A DNA stretch of 64,000 bases, taken from contig CBDUMD010000005.1 in NCBI GenBank assembly GCA_965368245.1, positions 9,876 to 73,875 of the forward strand, written 5' to 3'. Shown piece by piece: positions 1,629-53,373 of this stretch (position 1 is the stretch's first letter; every line of letters starts with the position of its first letter). The notes under the pieces were generated by a model, which did no database searches, was not told the DNA's origin, and was given only the letters and a program-made list of their open reading frames with translations. The position numbers were made by a program, and so were the translations under genes. This DNA is from an uncultured Thermoproteales archaeon (GTDB lineage: Archaea; Thermoproteota; Thermoprotei; Thermofilales; B20-G17).

Positions 1629-2412
1629 AAGGTTTAAAATACTCATCACCAACGATGATGGCCCATTCAGCCCCGGGTTGAAGCTACTTTACGATGCAGT
1701 TAAAGACCTTGGCGAATGTTTTGTGGTCGTACCTGAAACACCTAAATCAGCCAGCGGGTTGGGCATAACCTTACATAAGCCGTTAAGGATAAAGAGGCTG
1801 GTAGTACAGGACGTACCGATGTACCTTGTGAACGGCGCGCCGAGCGACATAATCTACGTTGCAGAAAACTCCGTGTGCGGTAGACCCAACCTAGTTCTCT
1901 CTGGAGTTAACATAGGAGATAATACGAGCGTCCAGGTTGTGCTCTCCTCCGGCACCGTTGGAGCAGCCCTCCAAGCCGCACTAGAAAACATCCCTGGAAT
2001 CTCGTTCAGCGTGGCTGCGGACTCCCCGGAAAAACTGGAGGAAAAAGAGCTATGGCAAAGCATATGGAAAGCCATTAGAATGTTGGTTAAACACGTGGTT
2101 GAAGAAGGGTTCCCGGAGGGTGTAGACGTACTTAACGTAAATTTTCCTTCAAAGCCCGCCAAGACCTTCAAATACGCCCCTCTAGCTAGACTGAGATTCA
2201 GCAATCTAGTTGTAAAGCGTAGAGACCCCCGTGGAGTCGACTACTACTGGCTATATGGAGAACCCGTCCAGCCGGAGCCGGGCACCGATGTCTACACCGT
2301 TTTAGTGGAGGAAAAGATCTCCGTAACCCCCATATCTATAAGGGGTCTAACCGGACCCAGTGAACCGGTTTTAAAGTTGCTTAAAAGACTATCTGTTTAT
2401 TTGAGTATTTAG
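1615..2412 (+). CDS. surE: 5'/3'-nucleotidase SurE
   Basis: ILITNDDG, SASG, NGAPSD, SGVNIGDN, SSGTVGAA and DPRGVDYYW motifs. Confidence 0.95.
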   Translation: MPSHKRFKILITNDDGPFSPGLKLLYDAVKDLGECFVVVPETPKSASGLGITLHKPLRIKRLVVQDVPMYLVNGAPSDIIYVAENSVCGRPNLVLSGVNIGDNTSVQVVLSSGTVGAALQAALENIPGISFSVAADSPEKLEEKELWQSIWKAIRMLVKHVVEEGFPEGVDVLNVNFPSKPAKTFKYAPLARLRFSNLVVKRRDPRGVDYYWLYGEPVQPEPGTDVYTVLVEEKISVTPISIRGLTGPSEPVLKLLKRLSVYLSI

Positions 2413-2653
2413 GGTATTTTGGAAATTATGGAAACTCAAAGCTTATATATGGCGTTTTATCTACTCACCTCAGATGCCATCAGGCTTAGCCGATGACGGC
2501 ACTCCCCGTAACCCGCACCCTGTGGTGTGCGAGAATGTAGCTCCCGATGAACCACCGATAGAGATGAGGTGACTGAGGGAGAAGCCCGTGCAAGTTCCCA
2601 TAATATCAAAAATATCCAAAACATCATGCACGGGCAACCACTAAGAGAAACAG
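2393..2653 (+). mobile_element. Miniature non-autonomous IS607-like element (E1), probable internally deleted tnpB element retaining an omegaRNA-like core
   Basis: Ends CTGTTT (2393) and AAACAG (2653). Subterminal 9-nt periodic repeats are inverted between the ends (24/31 identity). Internal TATA 2442-2449 followed by ATG 2474 (32-codon relic ORF). Homologous to 49158-49464 (TTATTTGAGT, AGCCGATGA, CATGCACGGGCAACCAC). Confidence 0.7.
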
Positions 2654-2657
2654 GTTT

Positions 2658-3818
2658 CTAAGAAAGTTTTTTCTCGATGAACTCTAGGAGCCTATTGAAT
2701 GCCAGGATCCTTGATGTACTGGGGCTACTGATCGGTCCGGGCCTTTTCATGTAGAAGGCGTTTACCTCGTAGATTGTTCCCTTAAAACCGTTTTCTAAAG
2801 CTAGTTTGGCTAAGCGGACTAGGTCGACTATATAACCCGCCAAAGCTGGACTATCGTTAACCCTCATATTGATAAATATCTCGTCTACAGCCCCGTTAAA
2901 AGACACATATTCAATGTGCATGGCAACGAACTTTTTGTCCCCCAATGGTTTAAGGTAGCCTGTAGGCTTGATGTAGTGTGGGGCTTCGTATTCCAAGATA
3001 TCTTTAACGATGCTGGATTTCGTTGCCTCCTTCGCTCTATTCCTTTCCTCGTTTAACAAGGCAAGGAAGTCCATGTTACCTCCTATGTTGAACTGTGTGA
3101 TGGATCTAACAAACCTGTTTCTCTCCTTTAAATGCTCCAGCAGGTCGGCTGTTAACGGTGTTGCGCCAGTGGCTCCATCATCTCCTAAAATCAGGCTACT
3201 GGACTCTTCGGCCATCTTAACATATCCGGGGCTGTTGGCTAATAACACAGGTATGAGATTTACGTAAGCTATTTTCCTTCCCCTTTCCGCGTACTTGAAT
3301 GCTAGATATGCGTATACCTGGCTCGGCACCAAGCCTACTCCTCCCTTCTCGATCTTCTCTTCAACCTGTCTTATGTCAGTCACTAGGGAAGATTTCTGGG
3401 TGGTGCAAACATCCACGATGACATCTGGTTTAAGCTTCTCGTACAGGCTGTAAAATTCGTCGAGAGCCTCTTTAAACTCAAGTTCTCTATCTAACGAACT
3501 CACCGGAATGTTAAGGTCTTTTAGGGACCGCATTTCAACACCTTTATATACTTTAACTTTCCTCAGGGATTCCGGGACATTGCCAAATCCATAGAATTCG
3601 GTAGCAACCTGGTAGACGTCTTTACCCGTTTTTCTTGAATCCACCTCAACTGAACCAACCAACTCAATGTCCTTAAAGCCATATTTCAAAGGCATATCTG
3701 CTAAGGGTACTCCATAGGGCTTTAACTCCCCTCTCTTTATCCTCTCCAACCCCACTGCGAAAATCGTTCCAACAACTCCCTGACCCAACATCAAAACCCT
3801 TATCATTGCAACCGCCAA
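2658..3818 (-). CDS. ino1: myo-inositol-1-phosphate synthase
   Basis: GQGVVG Rossmann, GDDGATG, QFNIGGNMDF, LGDKK and NDSPALAG motifs; start may be the ATG at 3806. Confidence 0.93.
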   Translation of the reverse strand: MAVAMIRVLMLGQGVVGTIFAVGLERIKRGELKPYGVPLADMPLKYGFKDIELVGSVEVDSRKTGKDVYQVATEFYGFGNVPESLRKVKVYKGVEMRSLKDLNIPVSSLDRELEFKEALDEFYSLYEKLKPDVIVDVCTTQKSSLVTDIRQVEEKIEKGGVGLVPSQVYAYLAFKYAERGRKIAYVNLIPVLLANSPGYVKMAEESSSLILGDDGATGATPLTADLLEHLKERNRFVRSITQFNIGGNMDFLALLNEERNRAKEATKSSIVKDILEYEAPHYIKPTGYLKPLGDKKFVAMHIEYVSFNGAVDEIFINMRVNDSPALAGYIVDLVRLAKLALENGFKGTIYEVNAFYMKRPGPISSPSTSRILAFNRLLEFIEKKLS

Positions 3819-3819
3819 C

Positions 3820-3864
3820 TATCTAACGGTCATTAGATACAATCTATCTAATAGCCATTAGATA
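3820..3864. promoter_or_regulatory. Tandem palindromic operators TATCTAA-N6-TTAGATA over the ino1 promoter, probable PadR sites
   Basis: Perfect 7-bp inverted repeats at 3820-3839 and 3845-3864, abutting the minus-strand TATA CTTAAATA (3863-3870), between divergent ino1 and padR. Confidence 0.75.
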
Positions 3865-3934
3865 TTTAAGTCTATCTCCCCACCACCCATCCCCAAGATA
3901 GGTAAAGGTTTAATATCCTTAGGCAGGGAGACTA

Positions 3935-4282
3935 TTGAGGAATCTTCTGATGAAAGAGGTTAAACCTATTCGGAGGCTTAAGCGTAAGCTGGGTATAGAG
4001 GTACTCTGGCTTTTTCTTCTCTCCCAGCTGGCTGAAGGAGACTCCTACGCCTACGAGCTAATAAAATTCATTGAGGAAAAATATGGTTTTAATCCAGGTA
4101 AAGTGTTACCCTACGTTGTTTTGAAAAGACTTGAAAACGAGGGGTATGTGGAATCCTACCTAAAGGATAAAAGGAAGTACTACAGGCTGACTCCACAGGG
4201 AATCGCCCTTCTTAAAGAGGGAATCGCGTACATAAAGTTAGTTTTAAATAATCTCGAGAAAAGTCTGACGGAAGATATTTGA
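3935..4282 (+). CDS. PadR family transcriptional regulator
   Basis: SYAYELIK...YVVLKRLENEGYV...RKYYRLTPQG winged-helix pattern. Confidence 0.9.
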   Translation: MRNLLMKEVKPIRRLKRKLGIEVLWLFLLSQLAEGDSYAYELIKFIEEKYGFNPGKVLPYVVLKRLENEGYVESYLKDKRKYYRLTPQGIALLKEGIAYIKLVLNNLEKSLTEDI

Positions 4283-5178
4283 GTAGGGTAAGGGACATGG
4301 AGAAGCTGATATCTGCTCTTCTAGAATTCTACATACCGTTAATAGTAGCTGTAGTATACAAGCTGTTTTATAAGCCACCAGACCGCACCTCAAGGGACCT
4401 CTCGAAGCTGGTTTTATACTTTTTTCTACCGATACTCCTCTTCAATTCGGTTTCGGGGAAAAATCTCCTTGATCTGGCCGGAACCTTCATTATAATGATT
4501 GCTGCATCGGCTTTAACCATCACCGTCTCCTTGGTTTCAGCTTTAATTCTGTTTAAAGGGGACCTGGAGATCGTTCTCCCCTCCTTCTATGTTAACGCAG
4601 CCTATCTGCCCCTCCCTATAGCAATGTCTCTTTGGGGTGAAGCAAGCATCCATCTCATAGGATTCTACGTGCTATTTAACGCCACTACAGGCAACCTTCT
4701 AGCCCCATTCCTCCTAGGTAGAGATATAAAGGAGGGAGTAAAGAGGATTGTACGGTATCCTCCTCTCTATGGAATAACACTAGGATTTCTTTGTTCCCTT
4801 ATGGGCTTCAGGCTACCACCATACCTCGCCGAACCCCTCTACACCACCGGCTCCCTTGCACCTCCACTCGCCCTCGTGGTGATAGGGTTACAGACCGAGA
4901 AGACGGGGAACCTGCTCGACGGGAGTGTAATGAAGCTTAGTGTAATCAGGTTTTTCATCTCCCCGCTGGCAACCTACCTGGCTCTACCGTTTATAGTATC
5001 TCCCGAGTCTTTAGCCTTTAAAGTAGCGTTATTAGAATCCTTTATGCCGCCAGCCGTCACAAACGTAATTCTTGCAAATGAATTCCTGGAAAAATCCGAT
5101 CGAATAGTTAGAATAGTGTTGGAAACAACGATAATCTCCACCCTGTTCATACCAGCATTCCTACTCCTAATGAAATAA
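4279..5178 (+). CDS. AEC (auxin efflux carrier) family transporter
   Basis: ~10 TM helices; NAAYLPLP, PPLYG and MPPAV motifs. Confidence 0.85.
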   Translation: MSRVRDMEKLISALLEFYIPLIVAVVYKLFYKPPDRTSRDLSKLVLYFFLPILLFNSVSGKNLLDLAGTFIIMIAASALTITVSLVSALILFKGDLEIVLPSFYVNAAYLPLPIAMSLWGEASIHLIGFYVLFNATTGNLLAPFLLGRDIKEGVKRIVRYPPLYGITLGFLCSLMGFRLPPYLAEPLYTTGSLAPPLALVVIGLQTEKTGNLLDGSVMKLSVIRFFISPLATYLALPFIVSPESLAFKVALLESFMPPAVTNVILANEFLEKSDRIVRIVLETTIISTLFIPAFLLLMK

Positions 5179-5180
5179 CA

Positions 5181-5714
5181 TTAAGTATGAACATAAAATT
5201 GACAACTTTTTGCCTCACTTTCGAACCACTTCACCATCCCTTTTAATATCTGTGCGGAATGTCTAGTGCCCTCCTTGTATGGAGTTTCACGAATACATAA
5301 ACGAGGTTCCAATAGCCTCCTAAACCAGAGAGCATTTAATAAAATTATAGGTGAGTATTTTCCATCCAATATACAGCTGAAGTCTGATTTTTCAATATCG
5401 TTCATAGCATTTAACGACTCTATTAGCTCATCTTCACTGAAGTGCTGAGTAGATGGTATCATATAGGTGACTAGCTTTTGTATTTCCTTTATATATTCAT
5501 GTATAAAATTAAGATATCTAGGGTATCTCTTCATATAACGTCTTACATATCTAAATATTTTATATATCCTCTTAGATAATTCATTGCTCTTCTCTTCAAG
5601 AACGGTAACTAGATCGTCCATAAATAGATAGATGTAAAGAAAACACGCATAATTTCTAACAGCATCAGGTGGATGATTCCGCCAAGTAATTTCATTTCCA
5701 AGACAATATAAGTA
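5181..5714 (-). pseudogene. AT-rich truncated gene remnant (C-terminal part of an unknown protein)
   Basis: Frame of ORF 5181-5621 stays open upstream to 5714 (YLYCLGNEITWRNHPPDAVRNY...) without a start codon, then hits a TAG; AT-richer than its neighbours. Confidence 0.5.
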
Positions 5715-5840
5715 CTAGCTCTGCGACTCGATATCTAAGAGGACTTTATCGACTGGGACTTATTAGAAGAAGGGAAAGAAGAAGTAAGGGAGGTAAAGAA
5801 GTCATATATTATCGATAGAACATTGGAGAGGGTCTACGTT

Positions 5841-6109
5841 ATGTCTAATGCTATCAGTGGCGAAATGCGGGTAATCTCGTTAATTAAGGTTAAAGGTGAA
5901 TTGGACAGTAATATTCTCAAAGAAAAGTCCTTGATTCGGCGAAGAAATTAGGTATCGAAAACATCGAAATAGTTGAGACTTTAGGTAGGGTAGATTATGC
6001 GTTAATTTACGGAGCTAAAAGTATCGAGGATGTCAATAAATTTGCTTTAGAGATCCGTAAAATACCCGATGTAGTTGACGGTGAAACTTTAATAGGGTTA
6101 ATAAAATAG
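5841..6109 (+). pseudogene. Stand-alone Lrp/AsnC ligand-binding (RAM/GYD-like) domain gene with a -1 frameshift
   Basis: ATG 5841 after GGAGAGG gives MSNAISGEMRVISLIKVKG...; after AAAGAAAAG (5919-5927) the -1 frame gives KVLDSAKKLGIENIEIVETLGRVDYALIYGAKSIEDVNKFALEIRKIPDVVDGETLIG*. Confidence 0.7.
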
Positions 6110-6131
6110 TTTTTCTTACATTTAACAATTT

Positions 6132-7628
6132 TTAGCCATAAAGTAGATCGAGTAGGGGTTTAACCCATTCTGCTGTTTTGTTTAATACGAGCCCCGGCAT
6201 AAGCGCGTGTGCTATGTCCTTTAAGTCTTCGCGTGTAACTATGTTCAGCTTAGCGTATAAGAAGAGGGAAAGGAAAAGTATAAGGGATCCACCGATAAGC
6301 CAATGGAGATTAAGGAAATAAGCCAATACGCCTGTCAATAAAGGAGGAGCCACTGTCAATGCTAGTTCTTTGAAGTTGATTTTGAAGCCGCTGATTTCAG
6401 CTATAACCGTAGCTGTAATCATTCCTAGGATGGCACCGGTGGTGAAACTTAGGGCCGCTCCAAGCCCCCCTAGAAAAGGTACCAGAAAGGAGTATAATGC
6501 TAATCTAGGTATATTTTGCATAGAGCCTATCACGAAAACTTTAAGGTAGTCTCCATACGCATATACAAGGCTGTTCACCGCCGACGTGATGGCCAACGGG
6601 ATTACAGCTACCACCAGAAGCTGAAGCATGGCGGAGGCCTGAATGTAGTTTGGTCCCAAGAGACCTAAGGGAAGCCATGGATACACCACCGTGAAAGCTA
6701 CAGCCGGGGAGCAGGCGGCTAGACTTATCTTTAAAACCCTCGCTGTAGCCCTTTTCCTACCATCTCTCATTCCACTTAAAACTGGGAAAAGCAAACCAAG
6801 CATGCTTGTAGCAAAAACTAAGACAACACTACTTATCGCAGTAGCCACGTAATATAAGCCCGATTCAAGTGCACCGCTTACACCAAAGACCGTAAGCAAG
6901 CCAACCTGTTGTCCCACCAATACTATTACTCCAGGAGCCCATCCAGCTACACCGGCTATGATGGAATCCTTTAAAGCATCAAATGAGAAGAAGGGTGGTT
7001 TACCGACGAACCTGTACACAAAGAATCCGTTTAGAAAAAGGGATGTCCAGCTGGCAACCAGATACCCTATTGTGGCCCCCACCCATCCCCACCCTGCAAT
7101 TACAAGGCTAACGCCCACTATGAACTTCAGGGAGCCTGCTACAAGGCTTACCAGGAAATTGATATCCGTTCTAAGTATGGCTATCAAAAAGGAGTTAAAG
7201 GCGACTCCGGCTCCACCCACTATCATGAGTGCCGCCAGAAAAAGCATGTAAGGATCCAGACCTATGTTAAAGAAGCTGATGGACGCCAGTGATACAGCTA
7301 TAAGTGAGTAGACGCATGCATAAAATGTGAATGCAGACCAAAGATATTCAGCAACCTTATCCAGGTCTCTTCTCCCAAGATAAATGCCTATAAACCTCTG
7401 CATCCCCCTAGCTACTCCCAGGCTGAAAACACCTGTAAGCAGGCTAGCTATGCTCGTGGTCGTGGTGGCGTAGCCTAGTGTTTCGGGCTCGGTAAACTTG
7501 GATATGACAAGCCAGTAGAGGAATCCCAGGATGCTACCGGTTAGGCTGGTTGCGTAAAGCCAGAAACCTCCTCTGACAACTCTTCTTATACTGAACTTTC
7601 CTCCCATGGATCCCCCGCACTGCCACAA
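6132..7628 (-). CDS. Oligosaccharide flippase (Wzx/MOP family)
   Basis: ~14 TM helices; SGLYYVATAIS motif; typical flippase size. Confidence 0.85.
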   Translation of the reverse strand: MWQCGGSMGGKFSIRRVVRGGFWLYATSLTGSILGFLYWLVISKFTEPETLGYATTTTSIASLLTGVFSLGVARGMQRFIGIYLGRRDLDKVAEYLWSAFTFYACVYSLIAVSLASISFFNIGLDPYMLFLAALMIVGGAGVAFNSFLIAILRTDINFLVSLVAGSLKFIVGVSLVIAGWGWVGATIGYLVASWTSLFLNGFFVYRFVGKPPFFSFDALKDSIIAGVAGWAPGVIVLVGQQVGLLTVFGVSGALESGLYYVATAISSVVLVFATSMLGLLFPVLSGMRDGRKRATARVLKISLAACSPAVAFTVVYPWLPLGLLGPNYIQASAMLQLLVVAVIPLAITSAVNSLVYAYGDYLKVFVIGSMQNIPRLALYSFLVPFLGGLGAALSFTTGAILGMITATVIAEISGFKINFKELALTVAPPLLTGVLAYFLNLHWLIGGSLILFLSLFLYAKLNIVTREDLKDIAHALMPGLVLNKTAEWVKPLLDLLYG

Positions 7629-7795
7629 AATATTTTGAAGAATATTTAATTGTTTTACTTAGCATTAAATAAACGGAGGAATATCCACAGCCCTTAACAT
7701 GTACGGTGAATGCCTTAAACTCCAGCTGGCAAATGTTTTAGGGAGGAAAATATATAATGTTTAGAAAATATATTTTGAATTGTTAAGGTGATTGA

Positions 7796-8479
7796 TTGAA
7801 GGCTCTTATTTTGGCCGGTGGTCTAGGCAAAAGGCTTAGACCCTACACGGAGAATACTCCTAAACCCCTAGTCATTGTGGCTACGAAGCCTATTATAGTA
7901 TGGCAGATAGAGTGGCTTAAAAACTATGGTATAACAGACTTTGTGGTGGCATGCGGTTATAAAAGGGAAAAGGTGATAGAGTATCTGGGTAACGGCAGGA
8001 AACTGGGGGTTAAAATTGGATACGTTGTTGAGGACGAACCCTTGGGGACCGGGGGTGCAATAAAGAACGCGGAACCTTTCCTAAAAAACGAGGGAAAATT
8101 CATAGTCATTAACGGGGATATTATAACAAATCTAAACCCTCTACACCTCTTAACTTTAGATAAGCATTTAGGTTCAATAGCTTTGGTTCCCCTTCCATCA
8201 CCTTATGGCATAGTGGAGACGGAAGGGGATAAGGTTAAGTCCTTCAAGGAGAAACCTCTACTAGAAGACTATTGGATTAACGCCGGCGTATACTGTTTTA
8301 GTAGTAAAGTTTTCAGCTACCTGCCTGAGAAAGGTGATATAGAACGGGAAGTGTTTCCCGTGCTTGCGGAGAAAGGGTTACTGAAAGCCGTCAAATACAC
8401 GAACGTGTTTTGGAAAAGTATAGATACCGTTAAGGACCTGGAGATCGCCGAGAAAATCCTCTCAAAGAAAAGCCGATAG
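7796..8479 (+). CDS. Sugar-phosphate nucleotidyltransferase
   Basis: ILAGGLGKRLRP...PKPL, EPLGTGGAI, NGD and EKP motifs. Confidence 0.9.
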   Translation: MKALILAGGLGKRLRPYTENTPKPLVIVATKPIIVWQIEWLKNYGITDFVVACGYKREKVIEYLGNGRKLGVKIGYVVEDEPLGTGGAIKNAEPFLKNEGKFIVINGDIITNLNPLHLLTLDKHLGSIALVPLPSPYGIVETEGDKVKSFKEKPLLEDYWINAGVYCFSSKVFSYLPEKGDIEREVFPVLAEKGLLKAVKYTNVFWKSIDTVKDLEIAEKILSKKSR

Positions 8480-8587
8480 AAGATACTATTAATGACATAT
8501 CAGCTTTATAGCATGTTTATCTTTTAAACCCGGTTTTCAGTCTACGCTAATAATTTAAATGGTTGGATGGATTAAATACTACAGTAG

Positions 8588-9418: not shown

Positions 9419-9507
9419 TTTTAAACCAACTTTACATCCATATTTTTGTGACCCAGATAAGAAAGAATTTTATTTTATAAGTCTAAAGCTAGAAATGTAA
9501 GGAGATT

Positions 9508-10257: not shown

Positions 10258-10370
10258 TACGGATCCCTCAACTAATTCCAGGTAACCGTCTGGGATGACC
10301 TATAAAGGAGTAGATATCAACACCATGTTAACCCGTCGTCGGGGACAGGATAATAGGCGGGGTTAAGGGC

Positions 10371-11534: not shown

Positions 11535-11584
11535 AGGACAGGTAGAGATATTACTTTGTCAAGCATCATATTCAAGGGATACCA

Positions 11585-16448: not shown

Positions 16449-16450
16449 TT

Positions 16451-35096: not shown

Positions 35097-36798
35097 AATA
35101 CGTATTCTACCATACGACAAGGTAGTGTATGCAGAACATGGAGACCTCTTAGCAGACGTTTTAATCAAAGCTGTACCCGACTTTATTTTACCCTGTGGTG
35201 GAAGAGGCTTCTGTGGACTATGCAGGGTGAAGGTGTTAAAGGGAGTCTGTTCAGAGCCTACAGCCAACGAAAAGCTTCATGGAGTAGCCTATCCCTACCG
35301 GCTGGCATGCCAAGTACATGTGGTATCCGACCTAGAGGTTGTGGTGGAACCTCCTGGCAAACTGCATGCTCTTACATCGGGTGTAGAACCAACACTAGAG
35401 GTTATTGAACCGATTGTAGAGACCCGTGAAATAGACTTCAATAGAGCATCAACACCGTTGGACAGATACCTAGTTGATAAGATGGGGTTCCGAGGGGTCA
35501 CTCTCAGAGCACTCCAACAGTTGACTACCATGGAGAATATGCTTCAGGTAAAGGTTTACGGGAACACTGTCATCGGCTTCTCTAATAAACCTAAGAAACT
35601 GGGTCTAGCCGTCGATGTCGGTACAACTAAGATAGCTGTTTACCTAGTAGATTTGGATACAGGGTTGACGTTGTGGGAATCGTATACAGTTAACCCTCAG
35701 TCGCGCTATGGCGATGATGTAATTACGCGTATCGGGGTAGTGATGAAGGACTATAATAAACTTAAGGAAATGCATGAGATCACAGTAAACGCTATAGAAA
35801 AACTATGTAAAGAAGGGTTGCGTCGAATCGACGTTAAGGATTCAGACATCCTAGCGTTGGTTGCTGTCGGAAACCCGGTGATGATCAGCATTCTACTTGG
35901 AATTGACCCAAGGCCTCTGGGAAGATACCCTTTTGAACCATTGGCATCAACTTTCTTCGAAGGGTATGGTTCAGAGCTCGGATTTAAGCTTCTACGAGAC
36001 TGCTGGTTTTACATACCTCCAGCAGTCTCAGGTTTCATAGGATCAGATGCCCTCGCGGATCTCATCACCGCAGAAGCGCTAAAAACAGGATACAGAAGAT
36101 ATCTTTTGATGGATTTAGGTACAAATACGGAGATAATATTAGTTGAAGACGAAGACTTCCTTGCTTCCTCCGCTCCAGCTGGCCCTGCCCTTGAGGGGGG
36201 TCACATTAGCTCCGGTATAAAGGCTGTTGAAGGTGCAATTTATAGAGTTAGGTTAAGAGACGATGGATCGGTGGCATATAGTTTTTATGGAAGGGAACCT
36301 AGAGGCCTCTCCGGCTCCGGGCTTATTAGCCTTGTGGCAGAACTATTGAGAAAGGGACTTTTAAGCATAGATGGTAGATTTAGGGGTCGTTTGGCGTTAG
36401 AGAAAAACTTTATCGTGGACAAAGAGAGGGGTATAAGGGTTACGCAAAGAGATATCCGTGAACTACAGAAAGCCAAGGCCGCTATTTCATCGGTATGGAA
36501 AACTCTTTTAGCAACACGTGGACTAAGTGTCCGAGACCTTGAAGCAGTTTATGTATGCGGGTCATTTGGATCAAACATCGATCCCGACGACGCCCTTCAA
36601 ATAGGTCTATTGCCGCCAGTATCTAGGAACAAGGTTTACGTGCTGGGAAATGCGGCCGGAACCGGTGCACGGCTTATCCTCAAATCCAGGTATTACAAAG
36701 GTAGATTAGAAGACATTAGCAGGAGAATGAAGGTCGTTAAAGTGGCTGAAGGAAAGAAATATATGCGAATATGGGTTGAAAACCTAGCTTTTGGATGA
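35077..36798 (+). CDS. Reductive activator of corrinoid proteins (2Fe-2S + ASKHA, DUF4445/RACE type)
   Basis: CGGRGFCGLC...RLACQ; DVGTT, NPQ..YGDDVITR, DLGTNTE, APAGPALEG and DIRELQKAKAA. Confidence 0.9.
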   Translation: MSKKKFKIRILPYDKVVYAEHGDLLADVLIKAVPDFILPCGGRGFCGLCRVKVLKGVCSEPTANEKLHGVAYPYRLACQVHVVSDLEVVVEPPGKLHALTSGVEPTLEVIEPIVETREIDFNRASTPLDRYLVDKMGFRGVTLRALQQLTTMENMLQVKVYGNTVIGFSNKPKKLGLAVDVGTTKIAVYLVDLDTGLTLWESYTVNPQSRYGDDVITRIGVVMKDYNKLKEMHEITVNAIEKLCKEGLRRIDVKDSDILALVAVGNPVMISILLGIDPRPLGRYPFEPLASTFFEGYGSELGFKLLRDCWFYIPPAVSGFIGSDALADLITAEALKTGYRRYLLMDLGTNTEIILVEDEDFLASSAPAGPALEGGHISSGIKAVEGAIYRVRLRDDGSVAYSFYGREPRGLSGSGLISLVAELLRKGLLSIDGRFRGRLALEKNFIVDKERGIRVTQRDIRELQKAKAAISSVWKTLLATRGLSVRDLEAVYVCGSFGSNIDPDDALQIGLLPPVSRNKVYVLGNAAGTGARLILKSRYYKGRLEDISRRMKVVKVAEGKKYMRIWVENLAFG

Positions 36799-42853: not shown

Positions 42854-42880
42854 AATCCCCTGAAAGAAAAAAGTATAGGA

Positions 42881-42972
42881 GCCCCGGTAGCTCAGCCTGG
42901 TGGAGCACCGGCCTCGTAAGCATTAGAAGTCGAGCTAGCCGGGGGTCGCGGGTTCAAATCCCGCCCGGGGCT
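42881..42972 (+). tRNA. tRNA-Thr(CGT) with an 18-nt intron at 37/38 (42919-42936)
   Basis: GCCCCGG acceptor; CCGGC-CT-CGT-A[agcattagaagtcgagct]A-GCCGG; GGTTCAAATCC T-arm; BHB central helix CTCG/CGAG. Confidence 0.95.
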
Positions 42973-43091
42973 CTCACAAAAACCTTTGGAATGAGATATT
43001 TGTTTAACGAAGTTTATTGACATCTAAGGCTACTACTTTCAAAACATTATCTAAATTATAAATCACTTAATTTACGGTAAAATAATCTGCT

Positions 43092-43754: not shown

Positions 43755-43827
43755 GTAAATCCTCTTTTAATCATCCTCTATAAAGAAATTTTCCTTTTTG
43801 AACCTGTTGAAATATTGTGGAAAAGAA

Positions 43828-45717: not shown

Positions 45718-45865
45718 CCCATTTTAAGTTATCATAAAAATAGGTAATTCCAAATAAAGTTTTAGGTAAAGCTAACGTGTCCAACCGCCCTTGGAATATC
45801 CGACTGAAGATTAAAGAAAGATAACAATATATAAAAAATATGCCTATGTTTTTTGAGGAACCTGT

Positions 45866-46102
45866 ATGGAGGTAAGAAAAATCATACCTTTGATCAACAT
45901 AGTTTTATTTGCAATATTCGTCTACTATCTTTTATACAGGATTTATCCAATGTTCCAGGGTACCGCTTACAGTCAGGGAGCATTTCTACTCTTGTTAGCA
46001 TCGATCATAGGCCTTGGTATAGCAGTAATCATATCTATACTTTTATTCTGGTTTAATGTTGGAGAAGAAGAGTCAATCGAGACCTTGAACTTCAGACCCT
46101 AA
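45866..46102 (+). CDS. Small 2-TM membrane protein
   Basis: Two hydrophobic helices; TATA upstream. Confidence 0.6.
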   Translation: MEVRKIIPLINIVLFAIFVYYLLYRIYPMFQGTAYSQGAFLLLLASIIGLGIAVIISILLFWFNVGEEESIETLNFRP

Positions 46103-47724
46103 ATATTAGTTATTTCTATTGCTCCGCGTTTACATGTAACATAGCAGGCTCCGCATCCCCTACAAAAATCTTGTATAACTGTTGGATAACCGTTTTCCTT
46201 TAAAATGATACCTTTACAGTTGAGGTTAACGCATTCCAGACAGGTGTCGCACTCCCTGTTAATTATCACAGCCTTTCTTGTAGATGAAGATTTAAAGGAG
46301 AGGGATGGTTTTAGGAATATTACTTTACCTCCATCTGTCTCCATCAGATGAAAAAGTAACCTGCATGTTTTAGCGTAGTCTTTGTAGTCGAGGTTAATTA
46401 CCTTCCCCCATTTATCGACCTTTACTTTAGAGTTATCCCATATGACGATGATCTTTCCTCCGCGCCTAACTATTTTATTTACCTTTTTACTGTCGAAGAA
46501 TTGTTTGTCCAGTATAAGTATTATAGGCCCTTCCCGGTATCCCGAGTCAACCAGCCCCCAATAGACCCCATACACCATTGAAGGAGGAGTGACGATATCA
46601 AATAAATCGCCTATGTTAGCAATTTTGTAAACTGTAGGCGTTACTAGATGGGTGGCAACGTGAATACCGCTTTCAGGATAAGCATACAATGATGTTACTC
46701 CCACTGTTATTGGAGTAAAACTTTCCTGGAGAATTTCTACAAAGTTTCTTAAAACTGCCAACGAAAGGAGAGAAAAACTACCATTTATTTTAAATGCCCG
46801 TTTACCCCCTTGGGTATGTAAAATTTTTCTGAAGACCCGGTTGGAGAAAAATTCTGTATTAATTTTCCAGGTCTTATGTACCCGTATTTTATGGTTAGTG
46901 TTATTTATGGAGTCGGTGTAAATAGGAGGATCATAGTCGAGAAGGTTTAGACGTAAACCTTGTGCCACTAGTTTAGAGAAAAAGTTTAGTGGTGGCGGAT
47001 TCATGGGATAAACCGGATAAAAATCTTTCTCTGTTTCCAAGCAAGGAGGGGCAAGTGTAACCAACTGCTTTTTCTTTGAAGCATTTATGGGAAACTTTCC
47101 AAGAATTTTTTCCTGGAGGAGGGAGAAATAGTAAACCAGTACCTTGAAATTATCCCTTTTCCTGCGTATGAAACCCTCTTTTTCTCCGAAAACCATGTTG
47201 AGGTAGTTCCACCTGTACGGGATAAACCAATGCTTGTTAAATGTGGGACTTCTCTCAGGATAATCGGGTAAAATTATTCCATTATAATGCATATCGCTGG
47301 AGAAAAGGGATAACTTTTCTCCAACATAAAGTATGAAGATTGGTTCTTCCGCAGCTTCACTAACATTAGATAAGTAGTCTAAATAAATGGAAAGAATTTT
47401 ATCGTCGTCAAATACTATACAGGACAGTTTCAGGTTTTTTAAGAGATAAATTATCTCCGCGGCCTCCTCCCTCCTCAAAACTAATATTGCTAGTACTCCT
47501 CCACGTACACCGCCATAAGTATAGAAATAGAGTATATCTAGAAGCTTGCGAAAAGCCGTTTTTTCGACTTTGGCTATGGCTAAAGCTTTTAGCCCCGTGA
47601 TAGATAAGCCCAGAGACCTTTCTAAAGCCTCTCTAACGCTACTAACCACCAGTACATTCTCAAAAGTATGTCCCTCTATTAGCTCTGATATCGCTTTATC
47701 GACGTACATTTTACTGAAGTTCAT
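46099..47724 (-). CDS. Highly diverged IorA-like protein with C-terminal 2x[4Fe-4S] ferredoxin
   Basis: EALERSLGLSITG...YTYGGVRGG resembles the IorA N-terminus; CDTCLECVNLNC...CRGCGACYVTC. Confidence 0.6.
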   Translation of the reverse strand: MNFSKMYVDKAISELIEGHTFENVLVVSSVREALERSLGLSITGLKALAIAKVEKTAFRKLLDILYFYTYGGVRGGVLAILVLRREEAAEIIYLLKNLKLSCIVFDDDKILSIYLDYLSNVSEAAEEPIFILYVGEKLSLFSSDMHYNGIILPDYPERSPTFNKHWFIPYRWNYLNMVFGEKEGFIRRKRDNFKVLVYYFSLLQEKILGKFPINASKKKQLVTLAPPCLETEKDFYPVYPMNPPPLNFFSKLVAQGLRLNLLDYDPPIYTDSINNTNHKIRVHKTWKINTEFFSNRVFRKILHTQGGKRAFKINGSFSLLSLAVLRNFVEILQESFTPITVGVTSLYAYPESGIHVATHLVTPTVYKIANIGDLFDIVTPPSMVYGVYWGLVDSGYREGPIILILDKQFFDSKKVNKIVRRGGKIIVIWDNSKVKVDKWGKVINLDYKDYAKTCRLLFHLMETDGGKVIFLKPSLSFKSSSTRKAVIINRECDTCLECVNLNCKGIILKENGYPTVIQDFCRGCGACYVTCKRGAIEITNI

Positions 47725-47729
47725 GGTCT

Positions 47730-49040
47730 CTACGGGTATATTCTTCTAATGGTTCTTGGAAAAGGTATAGCGTCAACTATATGGTCTAAGCCACATATCC
47801 ACATGGTTAACCGATCTAATCCAAGACCGAACCCAGAATGGGGAACGCTTCCATACCTTCGTAGATCTATGTACCATTCATATTGACTTTGTTCAAGGCC
47901 AAATTTCTTTATCTTTTCGAGAAGTTCATGAATGTTCTCTATCCTTTCTCCGCCACCGATTATTTCGCCGTAGCCTTCAGGAGCCAAAAGATCCGCTGAC
48001 AGTGTAACTTCCGGCCGTTTTGGATCATTTTTATGGTAAAAGGCTTTAGCCTTTTCCGGGTAACCGTAAACAAAAACGGGTTTGTCGAATTCAAGTGTTA
48101 AGGCTCTCTCCTCATCTGCGCCGAAATCCTCGCCCCATTTCAACTGGAAACCTTTTTTAGAAAGTATCTCTAGTGCCTCGTCATACGATATCCTGTAAAA
48201 GGGAGGCTTTACGTTTTCAAGTAACGTTACGTTACGTTTCAACAGTTCTAATTCCTTTCTCTTGTTTTCAAGAACCTGGTCGACGATATAGCTTATAAGT
48301 TCCTCCTCAAGCTCCAAGAGTTCCTTGAAAGTATACCATGCCATTTCCGCCTCTGCGTGCCAGAATTCTGTCAGGTGTCTTCTAGTACGGGATTTCTCTG
48401 CCCTAAAGGATGGAGCAACAGTGTAGACTTTCTCCAGAGAGAAGATTAAAGCCTCTAAGTAAAACTGCGAAGACTGGGTCAGGTAAACTCCCTTTCGATC
48501 GAAGTAGTCGACTTCGAAAAGGGATGCCCCGCCTTCTACGGCAGCCGTTATGAACATAGGGGCCTGGACTTCCAAGAACCCCTTTTTCCTAAAGAATTCG
48601 TGTAGGCTTCTAAACACTTCGTCGCGGACTTTTAGAACTGCATTCATTCGCCGGCTTCTAATCCAGAGATGCCTTACATCAAGCAAAAACTCCCTTGAAG
48701 CGCCTTTGGTTATGGGAAAGGGTTCCGCCAAGCTTATAGTCTTGAAATCAGTTGCTCTCAACTCTAGACCTCCAGGCGCCCTAGGATCCTTCTTAACAAT
48801 CCCTTTAACATGTATGGATGACTCTATAGTAACGTTTTCTGCTTCACTAAAGAAAGGGGAGCTGGAGTCGACAACTACCTGTATTATGCCTGTAGCATCT
48901 CGTAAAATTATGAAAACATGCTCCTTCTGTGTTCGAACCCTATGGACCCATCCCCTTAAAGCCACCTCGGTTCCTAAAGGTTGTTTTTCAAATACCTCCA
49001 TAACGCTGGTGAATTCAATAGTAGATCCCCTCTTCCACAC
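47730..49040 (-). CDS. asnS: Asparagine--tRNA ligase
   Basis: OB-fold LRGWV, YLTQSSQFYLE, FRAEKSRTRRHLTEFW and PHSGFGLG. Confidence 0.92.
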   Translation of the reverse strand: MWKRGSTIEFTSVMEVFEKQPLGTEVALRGWVHRVRTQKEHVFIILRDATGIIQVVVDSSSPFFSEAENVTIESSIHVKGIVKKDPRAPGGLELRATDFKTISLAEPFPITKGASREFLLDVRHLWIRSRRMNAVLKVRDEVFRSLHEFFRKKGFLEVQAPMFITAAVEGGASLFEVDYFDRKGVYLTQSSQFYLEALIFSLEKVYTVAPSFRAEKSRTRRHLTEFWHAEAEMAWYTFKELLELEEELISYIVDQVLENKRKELELLKRNVTLLENVKPPFYRISYDEALEILSKKGFQLKWGEDFGADEERALTLEFDKPVFVYGYPEKAKAFYHKNDPKRPEVTLSADLLAPEGYGEIIGGGERIENIHELLEKIKKFGLEQSQYEWYIDLRRYGSVPHSGFGLGLDRLTMWICGLDHIVDAIPFPRTIRRIYP

Positions 49041-49157
49041 AAAGAATACATTTACATATAAATTCTATTCTATCCAATAAAAGTATCTAGTCGTGAGCAG
49101 GAAAAAAGAAACCTTTAACAATAACAATCTTAACATCTACCTGCCCTGGCTTTGGAA

Positions 49158-49464
49158 TCGTTTATCCGGTTTGGTGGTTGCCCGTGCATGGTTGCCAAAG
49201 TGACGAGAATATCCGAAATACTATGCATGGGTTCATCCCGCCTTTTGGGCGCCCCTTTGACCTACCTACGGGGGCGCCTACACACTTATTCGGCACCCCC
49301 TCGGCGAATCTAGGGTTTGCCTCATCCCCCGGCCTACGGCTCATCAGCTCATCGGCTTACCGAAATACATGTACCTAGATATCCAGATATAAATTTCATG
49401 GCGAAAAACTATAGGTAAAATACTTGCAAATCACCATAATCACGAAAATAACTCAAATAAGCGA
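49158..49464 (-). mobile_element. Miniature non-autonomous IS607-like element (E2), same family as E1
   Basis: Minus-strand ends TCGCTTA...TAAACGA; left-end 9-nt repeats (TTATTTGAG TTATTTTCG TGATTATGG TGATTTGCA); TATA 49386-49393; shares CATGCACGGGCAACCAC with E1; contains the 60-aa relic ORF 49162-49344. Confidence 0.7.
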
Positions 49465-49482
49465 ATAGTCTTAGTTTTCGAT

Positions 49483-50496
49483 TTAAAGGTCTACTATTCC
49501 AGCCTCACTTATGTAAAATACAACCTCACGTTCCGCATGTTTAGGCGAGTCGATTATACGTGCAATTCTCTTACCTTCTTTACCCTTTTTGAGCCATATT
49601 CTATATGTGCATCCATGGGCTACTACGTTTCCACCAGCTGGTCTAAGTGGATTGCCAAAGAAGACGTCGGGTGCAGCAATAACCTGGTTTGTTACCACGA
49701 CAGCTAAATCATATACAGCTGCCATACGTAACAATTGGTGTACGTGTCTGTTGAGTTTCTGTTGGCGGGGTGCAAGGTTCTCTCTGCCAGGATATTCTGC
49801 CCTAAAGTGGCTTACAAGACTATCGACCACCACTAGCTTTATGTTCTCGCTTTCTATCCTCTTTTTTAGCTCATTAAGTATAAGCATTTGATGGTCAGAG
49901 TTATAGGCACGTGCATATATAATGTTATCCAAGAAACTTTCTGGGGTTTTATCTGGAAAACGGTGTTTAATTATCTGTACTACTCTTTCCGGACGGAAGG
50001 TGCCTTCAGTGTCGATATAGGCTGCTTTACCTTCAAGCCCTCCCTCGTCTTCAGGTAGTTGAACCATTACAGAAAGCTGATGGCATATCTGTGTTTTTCC
50101 TGCCCCAAACTCTCCTATGAACTCGGTAATAGCTTGCGTTTCTATACCTCCTTCAAGAAGCTCATCTAAAGCATTACAGCCGGTGGAGATTCTTTTTACT
50201 CTAAGTCTCTGTTCATAGTACTCTTTTGCTGTAATGAACAGTTTACCTCTCATCACCAATTTCTGGGCATTCGATATAATGCTCTTGGCTCTCTCCTCTG
50301 AGCCTATGGCCTCAGCTACCTCCTGCACGGATGCCGCGGCCAGATCACGGGGGCTAAATATACCAGTTCTTCTCAGTTTTTCCGCAGTTACCCTTCCTAA
50401 ACCCTCTATGTCCTCAAGCTCGTAATCTATTTCCTCTATAATAGATTCATCTTCCAACAAGTCTTTCTTCTTTACTCTACTTTTACTTTGAGTCAA
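49483..50496 (-). CDS. radA: DNA repair and recombination protein RadA
   Basis: HhH N-domain, GEFGAGKTQ, YIDTEGTFRPER and RAEYPGRENLAPRQQKL; no intein. Confidence 0.97.
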   Translation of the reverse strand: MTQSKSRVKKKDLLEDESIIEEIDYELEDIEGLGRVTAEKLRRTGIFSPRDLAAASVQEVAEAIGSEERAKSIISNAQKLVMRGKLFITAKEYYEQRLRVKRISTGCNALDELLEGGIETQAITEFIGEFGAGKTQICHQLSVMVQLPEDEGGLEGKAAYIDTEGTFRPERVVQIIKHRFPDKTPESFLDNIIYARAYNSDHQMLILNELKKRIESENIKLVVVDSLVSHFRAEYPGRENLAPRQQKLNRHVHQLLRMAAVYDLAVVVTNQVIAAPDVFFGNPLRPAGGNVVAHGCTYRIWLKKGKEGKRIARIIDSPKHAEREVVFYISEAGIVDL

Positions 50497-50615
50497 TAAG
50501 CTACTACCCCTTATGTTAGATTCTTACCAAAATTATTTAAACTTACACTTAAGATACTTGCCTGAAAGTAATTAATATACATCTTTAATGTTAAAAATAT
50601 AGACGGTAATGTACG

Positions 50616-51791
50616 GTGGGCTTGGAGGAAGAGGGGAAAGAGGTTTACAAGGAAGCATTAGAAGTTGTTAGAAAAGTTAGTGAGTCGCTGGGATCTGGAG
50701 AACTTGTCCCCATATCTCGTGCACATATCTCTGGCGTATCGTATGTTAATATAGGTGACGCTGGCCTAGAGTTCATTAGAGACCTAGCTGAAAGGGGAGG
50801 ACGTTTTCGTGTAGCAACTACATTGAATCCCGTTGCCGTAGATCTCGAAAAATGGAAGGAAATGGATGTGCCTGAAGAAATAGTGTCAAAGCAGAAGGAG
50901 ATTGTAGAACTGCTTGTAAAGATGGGGGCAAAACCCACGTTAACCTGCACACCTTATTTAATAGATCCTCCTAAAAGGGGAGAGCAGGTGGCATGGGGGG
51001 AAAGCAACGCTGTGCTCTATGCTAACAGCGTTCTAGGAGCGAGGACAAATAGGGAGGGAGGACCCTTAACAATCCTTGAGGCTATATGCGGTAAAGCACC
51101 TTACCTAGGTTTACGGATAGATGAAGGCAGAAAACCTACGGTGGAGGTTTACTTTGAAAAGGAGGTATGGAAAGCTGTTGAAAATAGAAAGATACCTTAC
51201 AGTGCTCTTGGATACTCCCTCGGCCTAGCCGTAGGTAGAGGCGTCCCCTTACTGATGGAAACAAGGCTTCCCTTTAAACACATCAAAAACTTTCTAGCAG
51301 CTGTAGGTGCATCGAGCTCCATAGGACTTGTATTAATTAGAGGACTATCCCCCGAAGTAAAAGAAAGTAATTTTTACCGGGAAAAAGTAGAAAAAATTTC
51401 ACTTTCCTTAACTGAGGTTGAGGACTCAATCGAAAAATTTAGGAAAAAAGCCGAAAAAGCTGATGCCGTATTCCTCGGATGCCCACACCTCTCTCCCAGC
51501 GAACTGAGAGAAATTTTCTATTTTCTCGAGAAAAAGGGCTGGACGCCAAGAAAAAAGGTAATATTATCTACTTCTAGATGGGCTTTAAACCAGGTCGGCG
51601 GAAAAATCTGTAGAGAGAAAATGGATAAGGTAATTATTTTATCCGATACATGTATAGTTGTTTCTCCTATAGAATACATGAATGTGAAGCACGTTGTAAC
51701 AGACTCGGCTAAAGCGGCATACTATTTATCCAATAAAGGATTAGATGTAACGCTCCTCCCTAGAAAAACGATATTGGGTGATATTATTTGA
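50616..51791 (+). CDS. Aconitase X catalytic subunit (phosphomevalonate dehydratase large subunit-like)
   Basis: AHISGVSY, TCTPY, WGESNA, GARTNREG, GCPH, DTC and TDSAK. Confidence 0.9.
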   Translation: MGLEEEGKEVYKEALEVVRKVSESLGSGELVPISRAHISGVSYVNIGDAGLEFIRDLAERGGRFRVATTLNPVAVDLEKWKEMDVPEEIVSKQKEIVELLVKMGAKPTLTCTPYLIDPPKRGEQVAWGESNAVLYANSVLGARTNREGGPLTILEAICGKAPYLGLRIDEGRKPTVEVYFEKEVWKAVENRKIPYSALGYSLGLAVGRGVPLLMETRLPFKHIKNFLAAVGASSSIGLVLIRGLSPEVKESNFYREKVEKISLSLTEVEDSIEKFRKKAEKADAVFLGCPHLSPSELREIFYFLEKKGWTPRKKVILSTSRWALNQVGGKICREKMDKVIILSDTCIVVSPIEYMNVKHVVTDSAKAAYYLSNKGLDVTLLPRKTILGDII

Positions 51792-52204
51792 TCATTAAGG
51801 CGAGAAGCATAGTTCCCGGGAACGTTAGCGGTTTAGCGTTGGTTTCACGGGACCCCATATCTTTTTACGGTGGAGTTGACCCTGAAACAGGGGTAATAGT
51901 TGAACCGGGGCACTCTTTAGAGGGAGAGAAAATTTCGGGTAAAATTTTGATTTTCCCTTATGGAAAAGGAAGCACTGTTGGATCGTACATAATATATCGA
52001 TTAAAGAAAAGGAATCTAGCTCCCCTAGCTATAGTGAATTTAGAGACAGAGCCGATAATAGTTGTCGGATGCGTTCTCTCGAGGATACCTTTAGTTGATA
52101 AGCCCGAAGCCAATGTAACAACCATTATTAAGACAGGGGATACTGTTACCATTAAAAGTGCTGGAAAGGAAGCATGGATAAAGGTGGATAAAAATGGAAA
52201 ATAA
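51788..52204 (+). CDS. Aconitase X swivel subunit (DUF126)
   Basis: ISFYGGVDPETG and GKGSTVGSY. Confidence 0.92.
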   Translation: MIIKARSIVPGNVSGLALVSRDPISFYGGVDPETGVIVEPGHSLEGEKISGKILIFPYGKGSTVGSYIIYRLKKRNLAPLAIVNLETEPIIVVGCVLSRIPLVDKPEANVTTIIKTGDTVTIKSAGKEAWIKVDKNGK

Positions 52205-52817
52205 AGAGAAAATTCTTGAGAAAATAGCCGAAGAAATAAGAGAATGTAAGAAATGCCCCTTATGGCGAAATAGAAAAAACGCTGTTCCAGGAGAAGGAAA
52301 CCCTGATACCGTAGTGATGTTCATTGGAGAAGCTCCCGGAAGGTTCGAGGATCTGGAAGGAAGACCGTTTGTGGGTGCTGCCGGAAAGTTATTAACCGAA
52401 CTTCTAAGAAATATAGGGCTTACAAGGGAGGAAGTTTATATAACTAACGTTGTTAAATGTAGGCCTCCAGGCAACAGAGACCCGGCAAGGGATGAGATAG
52501 ATAAATGTTCTCCGTATTTGGATAGACAAATAGAAGTTATTAAACCGAAGGTTATTGTAACTTTAGGAAGACATAGTACGCTCTACCTTCTGGGAAAAAC
52601 CGGGAGAAAACATGGTAAAGGTATTCTCTCTCTGAGAGGACGCTTATACACCATCCACATAAATCGTAATCCAGTTACAATACTACCGACCCTTCATCCT
52701 GCCGCCGCCCTCTACAATCCACGTCTCAAAACCATCCTAGAAAAAGACTTCGATAAATTAAAGGAAATATTGAAGAGTATTTCAAAGCCTAAAAAGGGGT
52801 TGGATGCATTCTTTTAA
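52194..52817 (+). CDS. udg: Uracil-DNA glycosylase family 4
   Basis: CKKC, GEAPG, PFVG, KCRPPGNR and HPAA. Confidence 0.95.
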   Translation: MENKEKILEKIAEEIRECKKCPLWRNRKNAVPGEGNPDTVVMFIGEAPGRFEDLEGRPFVGAAGKLLTELLRNIGLTREEVYITNVVKCRPPGNRDPARDEIDKCSPYLDRQIEVIKPKVIVTLGRHSTLYLLGKTGRKHGKGILSLRGRLYTIHINRNPVTILPTLHPAAALYNPRLKTILEKDFDKLKEILKSISKPKKGLDAFF

Positions 52818-53077
52818 AGAGGAAGCCCTCTACAGTAGACCCTTCCTTTATATCTTCTAACAAAATTCTTGCAGGTATAGCATAGAAGAAAGGGGACAAC
52901 TTTACCTTGAACAGGACATTCAACAGCCTCCTTCTTTAATCTGCTTATCATGCTTTTACCTAAGGCCCCCTTAAGTTCATCCTGAATGTTCTTAGGTATC
53001 CTAAACCTTCGTGGTGCCGGTATCACGTTAACTTGATATTTTACCTCCGCCTCCCCCAACCTCCTGGCACCCAACAA
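52814..53077 (-). CDS. Small Cys-rich hypothetical protein
   Basis: ECPV...CYTCKNF...YCRG four-Cys pattern. Confidence 0.7.
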   Translation of the reverse strand: MLGARRLGEAEVKYQVNVIPAPRRFRIPKNIQDELKGALGKSMISRLKKEAVECPVQGKVVPFLLCYTCKNFVRRYKGRVYCRGLPL

Positions 53078-53109
53078 ATTCTTCTTTCGATAAATTTAAG
53101 TTATTCCCT

Positions 53110-53373
53110 CCGTTTCCTCTAACCATATCACTCTATGTATTTTTCATTGTGGTACGGTTTCACGGGTTCCGCCTCGCCTACAACCCTTTTGTTAGGGTTG
53201 AGTGGTCGTGGGTGGCTGTCGAGCCCAACGGCACAAGGCTCCCATCTACGCTACTCCCTGCGGGCTTGGAGCAAAGCTCCCATCACCCACATGTTCATGA
53301 GAATCACTAGCACAACGCATTATAAGTGTTACGCTCGAAACATAACGATACAAAAACATACAAAACGCTACAG
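53110..53373 (-). mobile_element. Miniature non-autonomous IS607-like element (E3), second family
   Basis: Minus-strand left end CTGTAGCG with 10-nt repeats (TTTTGTAT x2); right end GGAAACGG; TATA 53319-53326; GC-rich structured core with duplicated GATGGGAGC. Confidence 0.65.

Follow-up and report, generated by a model that had tools for sequence, protein, structure and literature searches.

Three intergenic units, here called E1, E2 and E3, are almost certainly non-autonomous, gene-less mini elements of the IS607 family of transposons. They are located in a 64,000-nucleotide stretch of DNA (hereafter the window; contig CBDUMD010000005.1 of assembly GCA_965368245.1, positions 9,876 to 73,875) from an uncultured Thermoproteales archaeon. 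Each unit is sharply bounded and present in multiple copies, and consists of a left end with short periodic repeats and a TATA-like box, followed immediately by a structured part of ~170-190 nt that extends as far as the right end. The 3' half of each unit is G+C-rich. Judged by alignment and translation, in E1 and E3 the structured part corresponds to the final ~45-60 codons of tnpB together with the right end, where TnpB transposons encode the omegaRNA scaffold. An initial annotation, made from the letters of the window alone, had proposed three intergenic units with one common layout, and their existence, intergenic position and layout were all borne out. It had also stated that no transposase or TnpB is encoded in the window, and searches of the window's contig for TnpB, serine recombinases and Y1 transposases found none. 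The host genome is archaeal, with a size of 1.70 Mb in 45 contigs, a G+C content of 42% and an assembly that is 95% complete.

Searches of the entire genome revealed 22 matches for E1, 7 for E2 and 12 for E3, in agreement with the earlier description of a dispersed set. Several of these matches are found at contig ends, which is expected of repeats that interrupt an assembly. Fifteen E1-type copies are alike from (R)GACTAT(T/C)TG to GCACGGGCAACCAC, which ends in CAACCAC, and their flanks are unrelated on both sides. The conserved block of E1 itself extends from GACTATCTG to GCACGGGCAACCAC, and its first GAC may be part of the target or target-adjacent motif (TAM) and not of the element. E2 has E1-type ends (GACTATTCGC to GCACGGGCAACCAC) around a different structured core, and the copies of E3 run from GGGGCAGAAAC to GAGGAAACGG. 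The ends given in Table 1 were set by family alignments and by the points of divergence in public assemblies (assembled contigs only, from DNA and RNA libraries alike), where other copies part from the window at 49174, 53109 and 53390/53391. Five of the six ends proposed initially were off by 6-17 nt, only the right end of E3 at 53110 being exact. The right end AAAC(A/G)(G/A), assigned previously to all three units, is correct for E3; the corresponding letters at E1 and E2 belong to the flank, as the copies diverge directly after CAACCAC. AAACAG located 3' of E1 was also considered as a second right end and rejected, since look-alikes are found elsewhere in unrelated contexts.

Table 1. Coordinates of the mini elements and their predicted parts, numbered from the first nucleotide of the window
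Feature	Position	Strand	Basis
E1, gene-less mini IS607-family element, 255 bp	2387..2641	+	15-copy alignment, 22 matches, C7 parent
E1 left end, TATTT-type motifs ~9 nt apart and inverted-repeat arm 2408-2436	2390..2440	+	read from the sequence by eye
E1 TATA-like box, TTATATAT	2443..2450	+	E1 compared with C7 left ends; partly conserved among copies
E1 omegaRNA-like scaffold, tnpB 3'-end relic (..ADDG..VAPDEPPIEMR*)	2473..2641	+	tblastn, translation, helix counts
E1 predicted guide, begins TAAGAGAAACAGG (flanking DNA)	2642..2661	+	right end at 2641
E2 predicted guide, begins CAAACCGGATAAAC, from 49173 downwards	49154..49173	-	right end at 49174
E2, gene-less mini element, 297 bp	49174..49470	-	alignment of C5, C21 (97%) and C28 copies; loose end 49174
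E2 TATA-like box, TTTATAT on minus strand	49386..49393	-	read from the sequence
E3 predicted guide, begins AGGGAATAACTTAA, in ~32-nt spacer before ORF 52814-53077 (-)	53090..53109	-	right end at 53110
E3, gene-less mini element, second IS607 family, 281 bp	53110..53390	-	family alignment, 12 matches, loose ends
E3 omegaRNA-like scaffold, 3'-end relic of second TnpB family (..DGSLVPLGSTATHD..)	53110..53290	-	tblastn of relatives' TnpB, covariation
E3 TATA-like box, CTTATAA on minus strand	53320..53327	-	read from the sequence; partly conserved among copies

The strings reported to be common to E1 and E2 were all recovered. The 17-mer CATGCACGGGCAACCAC is found at 2625-2641 (+) and 49174-49190 (-) and nowhere except in these two units, with a chance expectation of 0. 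The second string, AGCCGATGA, occurs at 2488 and 49349 and once more, without relation to the units, at 35570, and the third, TTATTTGAGT, at 2397 and 49451. A motif scan of the host genome for the E1/E2 right end revealed 33 sites when two or fewer mismatches were allowed. Among the additional sites that end in GCACGGGCAACCAC are C1:23296, C2:104942, C11:29728, C4:2391 and C3:86732; some of the right-end motif sites are further short variants, one of them adjoining a tRNA gene on contig C4. Shorter E3 variants with another left part were also found, and these keep the whole scaffold. Open reading frames (ORFs) overlapping the units are short and unconserved, and their reading frames are broken among the copies. 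The relic start codon described initially did not hold up, as the ATG is not conserved among the copies of the 15-copy E1 alignment, and a conserved mini-ORF starting from the ATG at 2474 was rejected, its frame differing among the copies.

A parent of E1 is encoded in the same genome. The element C7:68878-70923 (minus strand, 2,046 bp) shares with E1 the left end (53 nt) and the last 137 nt of E1 with 83% identity. It encodes a serine recombinase TnpA of 206-211 amino acids (aa) with an N-terminal helix-turn-helix (HTH) domain (Pfam HTH_17 and Resolvase) and a 444-aa TnpB (Pfam TNB domain; C7:68893-70227, locus L065), the close homologues of which are labelled Thermoprotei. A tblastn search of E1 using this TnpB gave 46% identity over residues 373-443, and the C-terminus of the protein (..VAPDEPPIEMRWLREKPVQV..) is readable with its stop codon in E1. 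This indicates, by translation, that E1 is a left end joined to the last ~60 tnpB codons and the right end. Relatives contain elements of intermediate length that have these ends. One of 1.49 kb in G001 carries only tnpB, and one of 1.04 kb in G011 carries a truncated tnpB. The latter (G011:C4:89355-90393, L039) has E1-type ends, GACTATTTAC to GGGCAACCAC, around a truncated TnpB of a different type in which the canonical Asp is present (..TRDIVALWN..). E1-type ends thus occur together with TnpBs of more than one lineage.

For E3, the parents are found in relatives. In five of them (G006, G008, G031, G034 and G040) the E3 core is located directly 3' of genes encoding TnpBs of 427-458 aa, the C-termini of which (..GGELWHRDVVACWN..DGSPVPLGSTATHDP..) match the relic in E3. 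In G031 and G034 these genes follow a TnpA that is 78% identical to the C8 TnpA of the host genome, and the tnpA+tnpB elements are bounded by E3-type ends. The C8 element itself (C8:45706-46695, L066) is a tnpA-only IS607-type element with E3-type ends, which has lost almost all of tnpB while keeping an omegaRNA-like tail and a relic of the tnpB end. The earlier interpretation of the units as internally deleted tnpB elements, derived from tnpB parents with the same ends, is thus upheld for E1, with its parent in the same genome, and for E3, with parents in relatives; the two units retain the final codons of tnpB genes from two distinct families. It does not extend to the core of E2, which is without a detectable tnpB parent, so that a tnpB origin is supported by alignment for E1 and E3 only. 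The assignment to two families agrees with the two types of ends, GAC...CCAC in E1 and E2 and GGGG...ACGG in E3. The parents encode serine recombinases, and the sole Y1 transposase of the genome (C18:33714-34064) adjoins no match to E1-E3. That gene is followed by a TnpB fragment, the two forming an IS200/IS605-type element (C18:33714-34612). A second TnpB with OrfB_IS605 and TNB domains, located at C35:8229-9256, is cut by the contig end.

The repeats at the ends of E1 fit the account of IS607-family elements. The TnpA of IS607 binds multiple subterminal repeats, as described in PMC6188088, and the repeats in the left end of E1 are predicted to be TnpA binding sites. E1 also has a 29-nt subterminal inverted repeat, in which 2408-2436 pairs with 2593-2621 (83% complementary). 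The tips, GACTAT... and ...AACCAC, are not inverted copies of each other, and inspection of the 15 aligned E1 copies revealed no flanking duplication beyond the 2-nt AC. The position of the TATA-like box in each mini matches that of the tnpA promoter box in the left end of its parent, a position from which transcription from the former tnpA promoter would run directly into the scaffold.

GAC stands before 19 of the 20 E1/E2-type left ends, with a purine (R) in front of it in 18 of these 19, and the right ends finish in CCAC. E3-type left ends start with GGGG and the right ends finish in ACGG. In both families the -3 position is a G in the left motif and a C at the right end. GG has been described at both termini and in the target of IS607, IS1535 and ISC1926 (PMC6188088). 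E3 likewise has GG, whereas E1 and E2 (RGAC...CCAC) share AC instead, which implies that AC is their exchange dinucleotide. The account of CboIStron, a clostridial IS607 (10.1101/2023.11.20.567912), gives a left motif TGGG and a scaffold end UCGG, with GG as the exchange dinucleotide and the -3 position separating empty from occupied sites, a pattern that both families here repeat. According to the same account ~60 bp per end was enough for excision by TnpA in that system, whereas the minis keep ~170-190 nt on the right side.

Covariation indicates that the helices of the cores are maintained by compensatory changes. In the alignment of the E3 family (25 sequences, both minis and tnpB-linked copies) RNAalifold, unaided, revealed two helices in which 10 out of 11 pairs are changed on both sides. 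With helix 2 extended, 87% of 390 cells are paired, compared with 23-50% when the strands are slid; 60 cells are doubly changed, and none of 500 shuffles reached the covariation score. The alignment of the E1 family, also of 25 sequences, has five helices with 90% of 612 cells paired versus 33-54% when slid. Ten of the 25 pairs are changed on both sides, and again no shuffle out of 500 reached the score. For this family RNAalifold gave a poor consensus, and the listing of covariation for all pairs was too noisy for use. The terminal stem of E1 comprises 9 bp (2584-2592/2627-2635). In the window's copy almost every candidate helix is intact, with all 9 pairs of the terminal stem present, which places it among the best preserved. 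E2 has only three copies. The one on C28 has a 9-bp hairpin swapped for another self-complementary sequence, and the two that are 97% alike differ by one compensated pair, which links the right-end sequence to an upstream strand. Folding of single sequences gave z-scores of -2.3, -1.1 and -1.6, which are not decisive.

Rfam models at gathering thresholds identified only two tRNAs in the window and no family matching E1, E2 or E3, and at E-values up to 10 there were only chance-level snoRNA-like matches, in E2. The candidates RNase P, SRP and C/D or H/ACA small RNA were dropped for all units in the lack of an Rfam match, as was a hammerhead ribozyme suggested by CUGAUGAG in E2. One of the tRNAs, at 42881-42972 (+), has a 20-nt insertion after the anticodon stem, and is found by the Rfam tRNA model and missed by ARAGORN; the insertion is likely an archaeal intron.

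The distribution of the elements is patchy. E1-type elements occur in 5 and E3-type elements in 7 of 40 other genomes of the order, and E2 in none of them. In G001 the orthologues of the genes flanking E2 are only a few tens of nt apart, without room for the element, which, like the patchy distribution, would fit mobility in an indirect way. The E3 site in G001 (L101) and G003 (L102) was considered as a clean empty site and rejected, as a methyltransferase-like gene is located there instead. This gene encodes ~225 aa with the motifs VGCGSG and SNPP, and lies between the orthologues of ORFs 53422-55689 and 52814-53077; the same interval in the host genome holds only E3 plus 63 nt. The ORF at 1615-2412 (+) runs 26 nt into E1, the element providing its last 8 codons and stop; in a model without E1, joined at the AC, it ends 7 codons later at a TAA overlapping the stop of the convergent gene. 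At C3:85518-86745 (L100) an E1-like left end and a scaffold with right end surround a gene pair encoding HEPN and nucleotidyltransferase proteins on the other strand, and this may be a cargo-carrying non-autonomous IS607 derivative.

Taken together, the most probable explanation is that E1-E3 are non-autonomous, gene-less deletion derivatives of crenarchaeal (Thermoprotei-type) IS607-family transposons, for which the following mechanism is proposed. The TnpA serine recombinases of the C7 and C8 elements would move the minis in trans, with exchange at a 2-bp core, AC for E1 and E2 and GG for E3. The former tnpA promoter would transcribe the scaffold into the flank, giving an omegaRNA with the 16-20 nt located 3' of the right end as its guide. 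A compatible TnpB from elsewhere, for E1 the C7 protein, would then be directed by this omegaRNA to the emptied donor site, that is, the right flank attached to a left flank that ends in RGAC (GGGG for E3). Breakage of the emptied site would allow recombination to restore the mini, and the occupied site would be spared since the right end (CCAC or ACGG) differs from the target motif at -3, as it does in CboIStron. The C7 TnpB is the candidate for a compatible protein that the host genome offers for E1, their scaffolds being 83% alike. Of the guides predicted initially, that of E3 (AGGGAATAAC) is retained, and those of E1 and E2 began with the wrong base; their starts are shifted because the right ends were corrected to 2641 and 49174. 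No second exact target of the guides was found in the genome, and matches with two or fewer mismatches look like chance. Present-day use as a trans guide RNA is proposed only tentatively for E1, and is less probable for E2 and E3.

A number of observations weigh against this mechanism, and some of them speak for inert debris: decaying internal-deletion derivatives in which the RNA-like core is kept by descent and by the adjoining TnpA sites, with no guide made today. The copies are 71-92% alike, the single exception being the 97% E2 pair, and none are identical; recent movement is thus not evident, and the divergence argues against very recent bursts. Only 4-6 of the 9 pairs of the terminal stem remain in 10 of the 15 E1-type minis, and two E1-type minis, both chimeras, have helix P3 at 1 of 6 pairs. 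Helix 2 is at 8 of 11 pairs in the window's E3; five G000 E3-type copies have a common C-C mismatch in helix 1, and the copy on C3 is without half of helix 2. No E3-type TnpB was found in the 95%-complete assembly of the host. Empty sites, the check suggested by the initial annotation, did not turn up either: three DNA runs (X1, X3 and X5) gave no joints skipping an element, and of two pattern scans of metagenomes, one directed at the E1 site and one at E2's C21 copy, neither had a match, in a collection that may omit near-identical genomes. The covariation may have arisen in the tnpB-bearing parents and not in the minis, and the helices of the E1 family are the weaker evidence, having been picked by eye and by a helix scan on the same alignment that was used for counting. 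The core of E2 found no parent by DNA in the 40 genomes of the order. Its peptide gave one weak, stop-interrupted match among 119 other genomes of the class and none in a large protein collection, and the core has no likeness to the tnpB end of the G011 element.

Decay alone is nevertheless rather unlikely, though it is the most probable of the alternatives. Three independent families, and the shorter E3 variants, keep the whole scaffold of ~170-190 nt where ~60 bp were enough for TnpA in CboIStron, and a predicted promoter is located directly upstream of the scaffold in each unit. Furthermore, no helix has been lost from the window's E1 or from four of its sister copies, and the compensated pair by which the 97%-alike E2 copies differ involves the right-end sequence. 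It may also be speculated that the host has co-opted E2 and E3 as promoters or small RNAs that drive or tune the downstream genes 47730-49040 and 52814-53077 (both minus). The right ends are indeed 134 nt (E2) and ~33 nt (E3) upstream of an ORF on the same strand, and E2 is fixed at this position in the strains of three studies, which is a further point against the preferred mechanism. An RNA-library contig (53008-53164, 0 differences) starts within E3 and bridges its right end into ORF 52814-53077. Contigs cannot show where a transcript starts and the RNA library may contain DNA, so this one may represent DNA or the 5' untranslated region or leader of the next gene, and the RNA-library contig over E2 stops short of the right end of E2; the contig at E3 is thus the only hint of transcription across a right end. 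The depths of RNA-library contigs over E2 and E3, and the parts left uncovered, are not counted as evidence, the depths being sums over the copies. E1, moreover, faces the 3' end of a convergent gene, and other copies are found in unrelated contexts, making co-option improbable.

The properties of the C7 TnpB are also relevant here. RuvC-I Asp203 and RuvC-II Glu294 are invariant in 108 homologues (those of at least 380 aa among the best 120 hits), while Gln378 aligns with the Asp of the NAD motif in solved Cas12f, which we take to be the catalytic Asp. At this RuvC-III position 103 of the 108 homologues have Gln and the other 5 His. Because of this Gln, the nuclease activity of the C7 TnpB is uncertain. 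The minis could instead guide an RNA-guided DNA-binding protein resembling the TldR repressors, in line with the presence of at least 20 scaffold loci and one intact TnpB gene in the genome, and with the inactivated TnpBs in regulatory roles mentioned in PMC10691335. Yet the protein is still part of a complete transposon beside tnpA, two catalytic residues out of three do not vary, and the guides match their own flank only. Asp391, 13 residues downstream of Gln378 and near-invariant (107 of 108), might substitute for the RuvC-III Asp. A survey in PNAS reports RuvC-III rearrangements that are conserved, and among them it names branches that are almost restricted to archaea and associated with serine recombinases. 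Its authors argue that activity is usually retained where a rearrangement is conserved, so that many of these proteins would still be active. A non-cutting TnpB is the least probable of the alternatives considered. An extended version, in which the ~20 promoter-driven omegaRNA-only loci serve the one TnpB of the Gln clade as a guide set for an RNA-guided DNA-binding factor, is highly improbable as well. If true, and if the protein binds without cutting or cuts in another way, such a set of ~20 loci would represent an intermediate between selfish homing and TldR-like regulation in a hyperthermophilic archaeon; its IS607 exchange site would be AC instead of GG, and its target motif RGAC.

Elements of this kind are already known, both as standalone omegaRNAs and as IS607-derived minis, and the units described here are new families of them. 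According to the summary of Altae-Tran 2021 in PMC10691335, standalone mobilised omegaRNAs work in trans with compatible effectors, and omegaRNAs are also encoded by non-autonomous IS200/IS605 elements of the PATE-like kind (Meers 2023 preprint, PMC10055086). Like these, E1-E3 are gene-less and presumably mobilised copies that keep ends and scaffold and would take the guide from the flank, with an effector-bearing element in the genome. Use in trans by a compatible effector was shown in those systems, according to these accounts, and is here predicted from sequence. Unlike PATEs, E1-E3 have ends and parents of the IS607 type (serine recombinase) and not of the Y1/IS605 type. They further differ from both standalone omegaRNAs and PATEs by the direct fusion of the tnpA promoter to the scaffold and by a cognate TnpB with a non-canonical RuvC-III residue.

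The HTH serine TnpA, the absence of inverted repeats at the tips and of target duplication, and the short subterminal repeats are shared with IS607, IS1535, ISC1926 and CboIStron, as these are described. As in CboIStron, the right end is where the scaffold stops, and the left motif has the presumed core dinucleotide in common with the right end but another base at -3. E3 resembles IS607, IS1535 and ISC1926 in its GG core, whereas the AC core implied for E1 and E2 differs from the GG described in all three. In contrast to CboIStron and its experimental mini-IS, as presented in that account, E1-E3 have no group I intron and are natural archaeal minis of 255-297 bp. A further likeness, by description only, is to SMN1 of Sulfolobus, a 320-bp non-autonomous element that depends on the ISC1733 transposase (PMC3718332). 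Both cases concern crenarchaeal gene-less elements of ~0.3 kb, trans-mobilised by the transposase of a larger insertion sequence, in our case as predicted. The present elements are noteworthy for the fusion of the promoter to the scaffold, for their apparent AC core, for a TnpB clade that carries Gln, and for the large number of scaffolds relative to effector genes. ISC1733 is presumably also a member of the IS607 family.

For genome annotation, units like these should be masked as derivatives of mobile elements and not reported as novel host RNA genes. For work on thermophilic TnpBs they provide exact scaffold ends, the candidate motifs RGAC (E1/E2) and GGGG (E3), an apparent AC exchange dinucleotide in a relative of IS607, and a clade with Gln at the RuvC-III position. 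More generally, E1-E3 are a natural example of TnpB transposons shedding their genes while keeping the guide RNA. Within a single small archaeal genome, three families have arrived at the same minimal design of a left end with promoter, a scaffold and a right end, and this convergence fits the idea that the guide RNA, besides the ends, helps a non-autonomous element persist.

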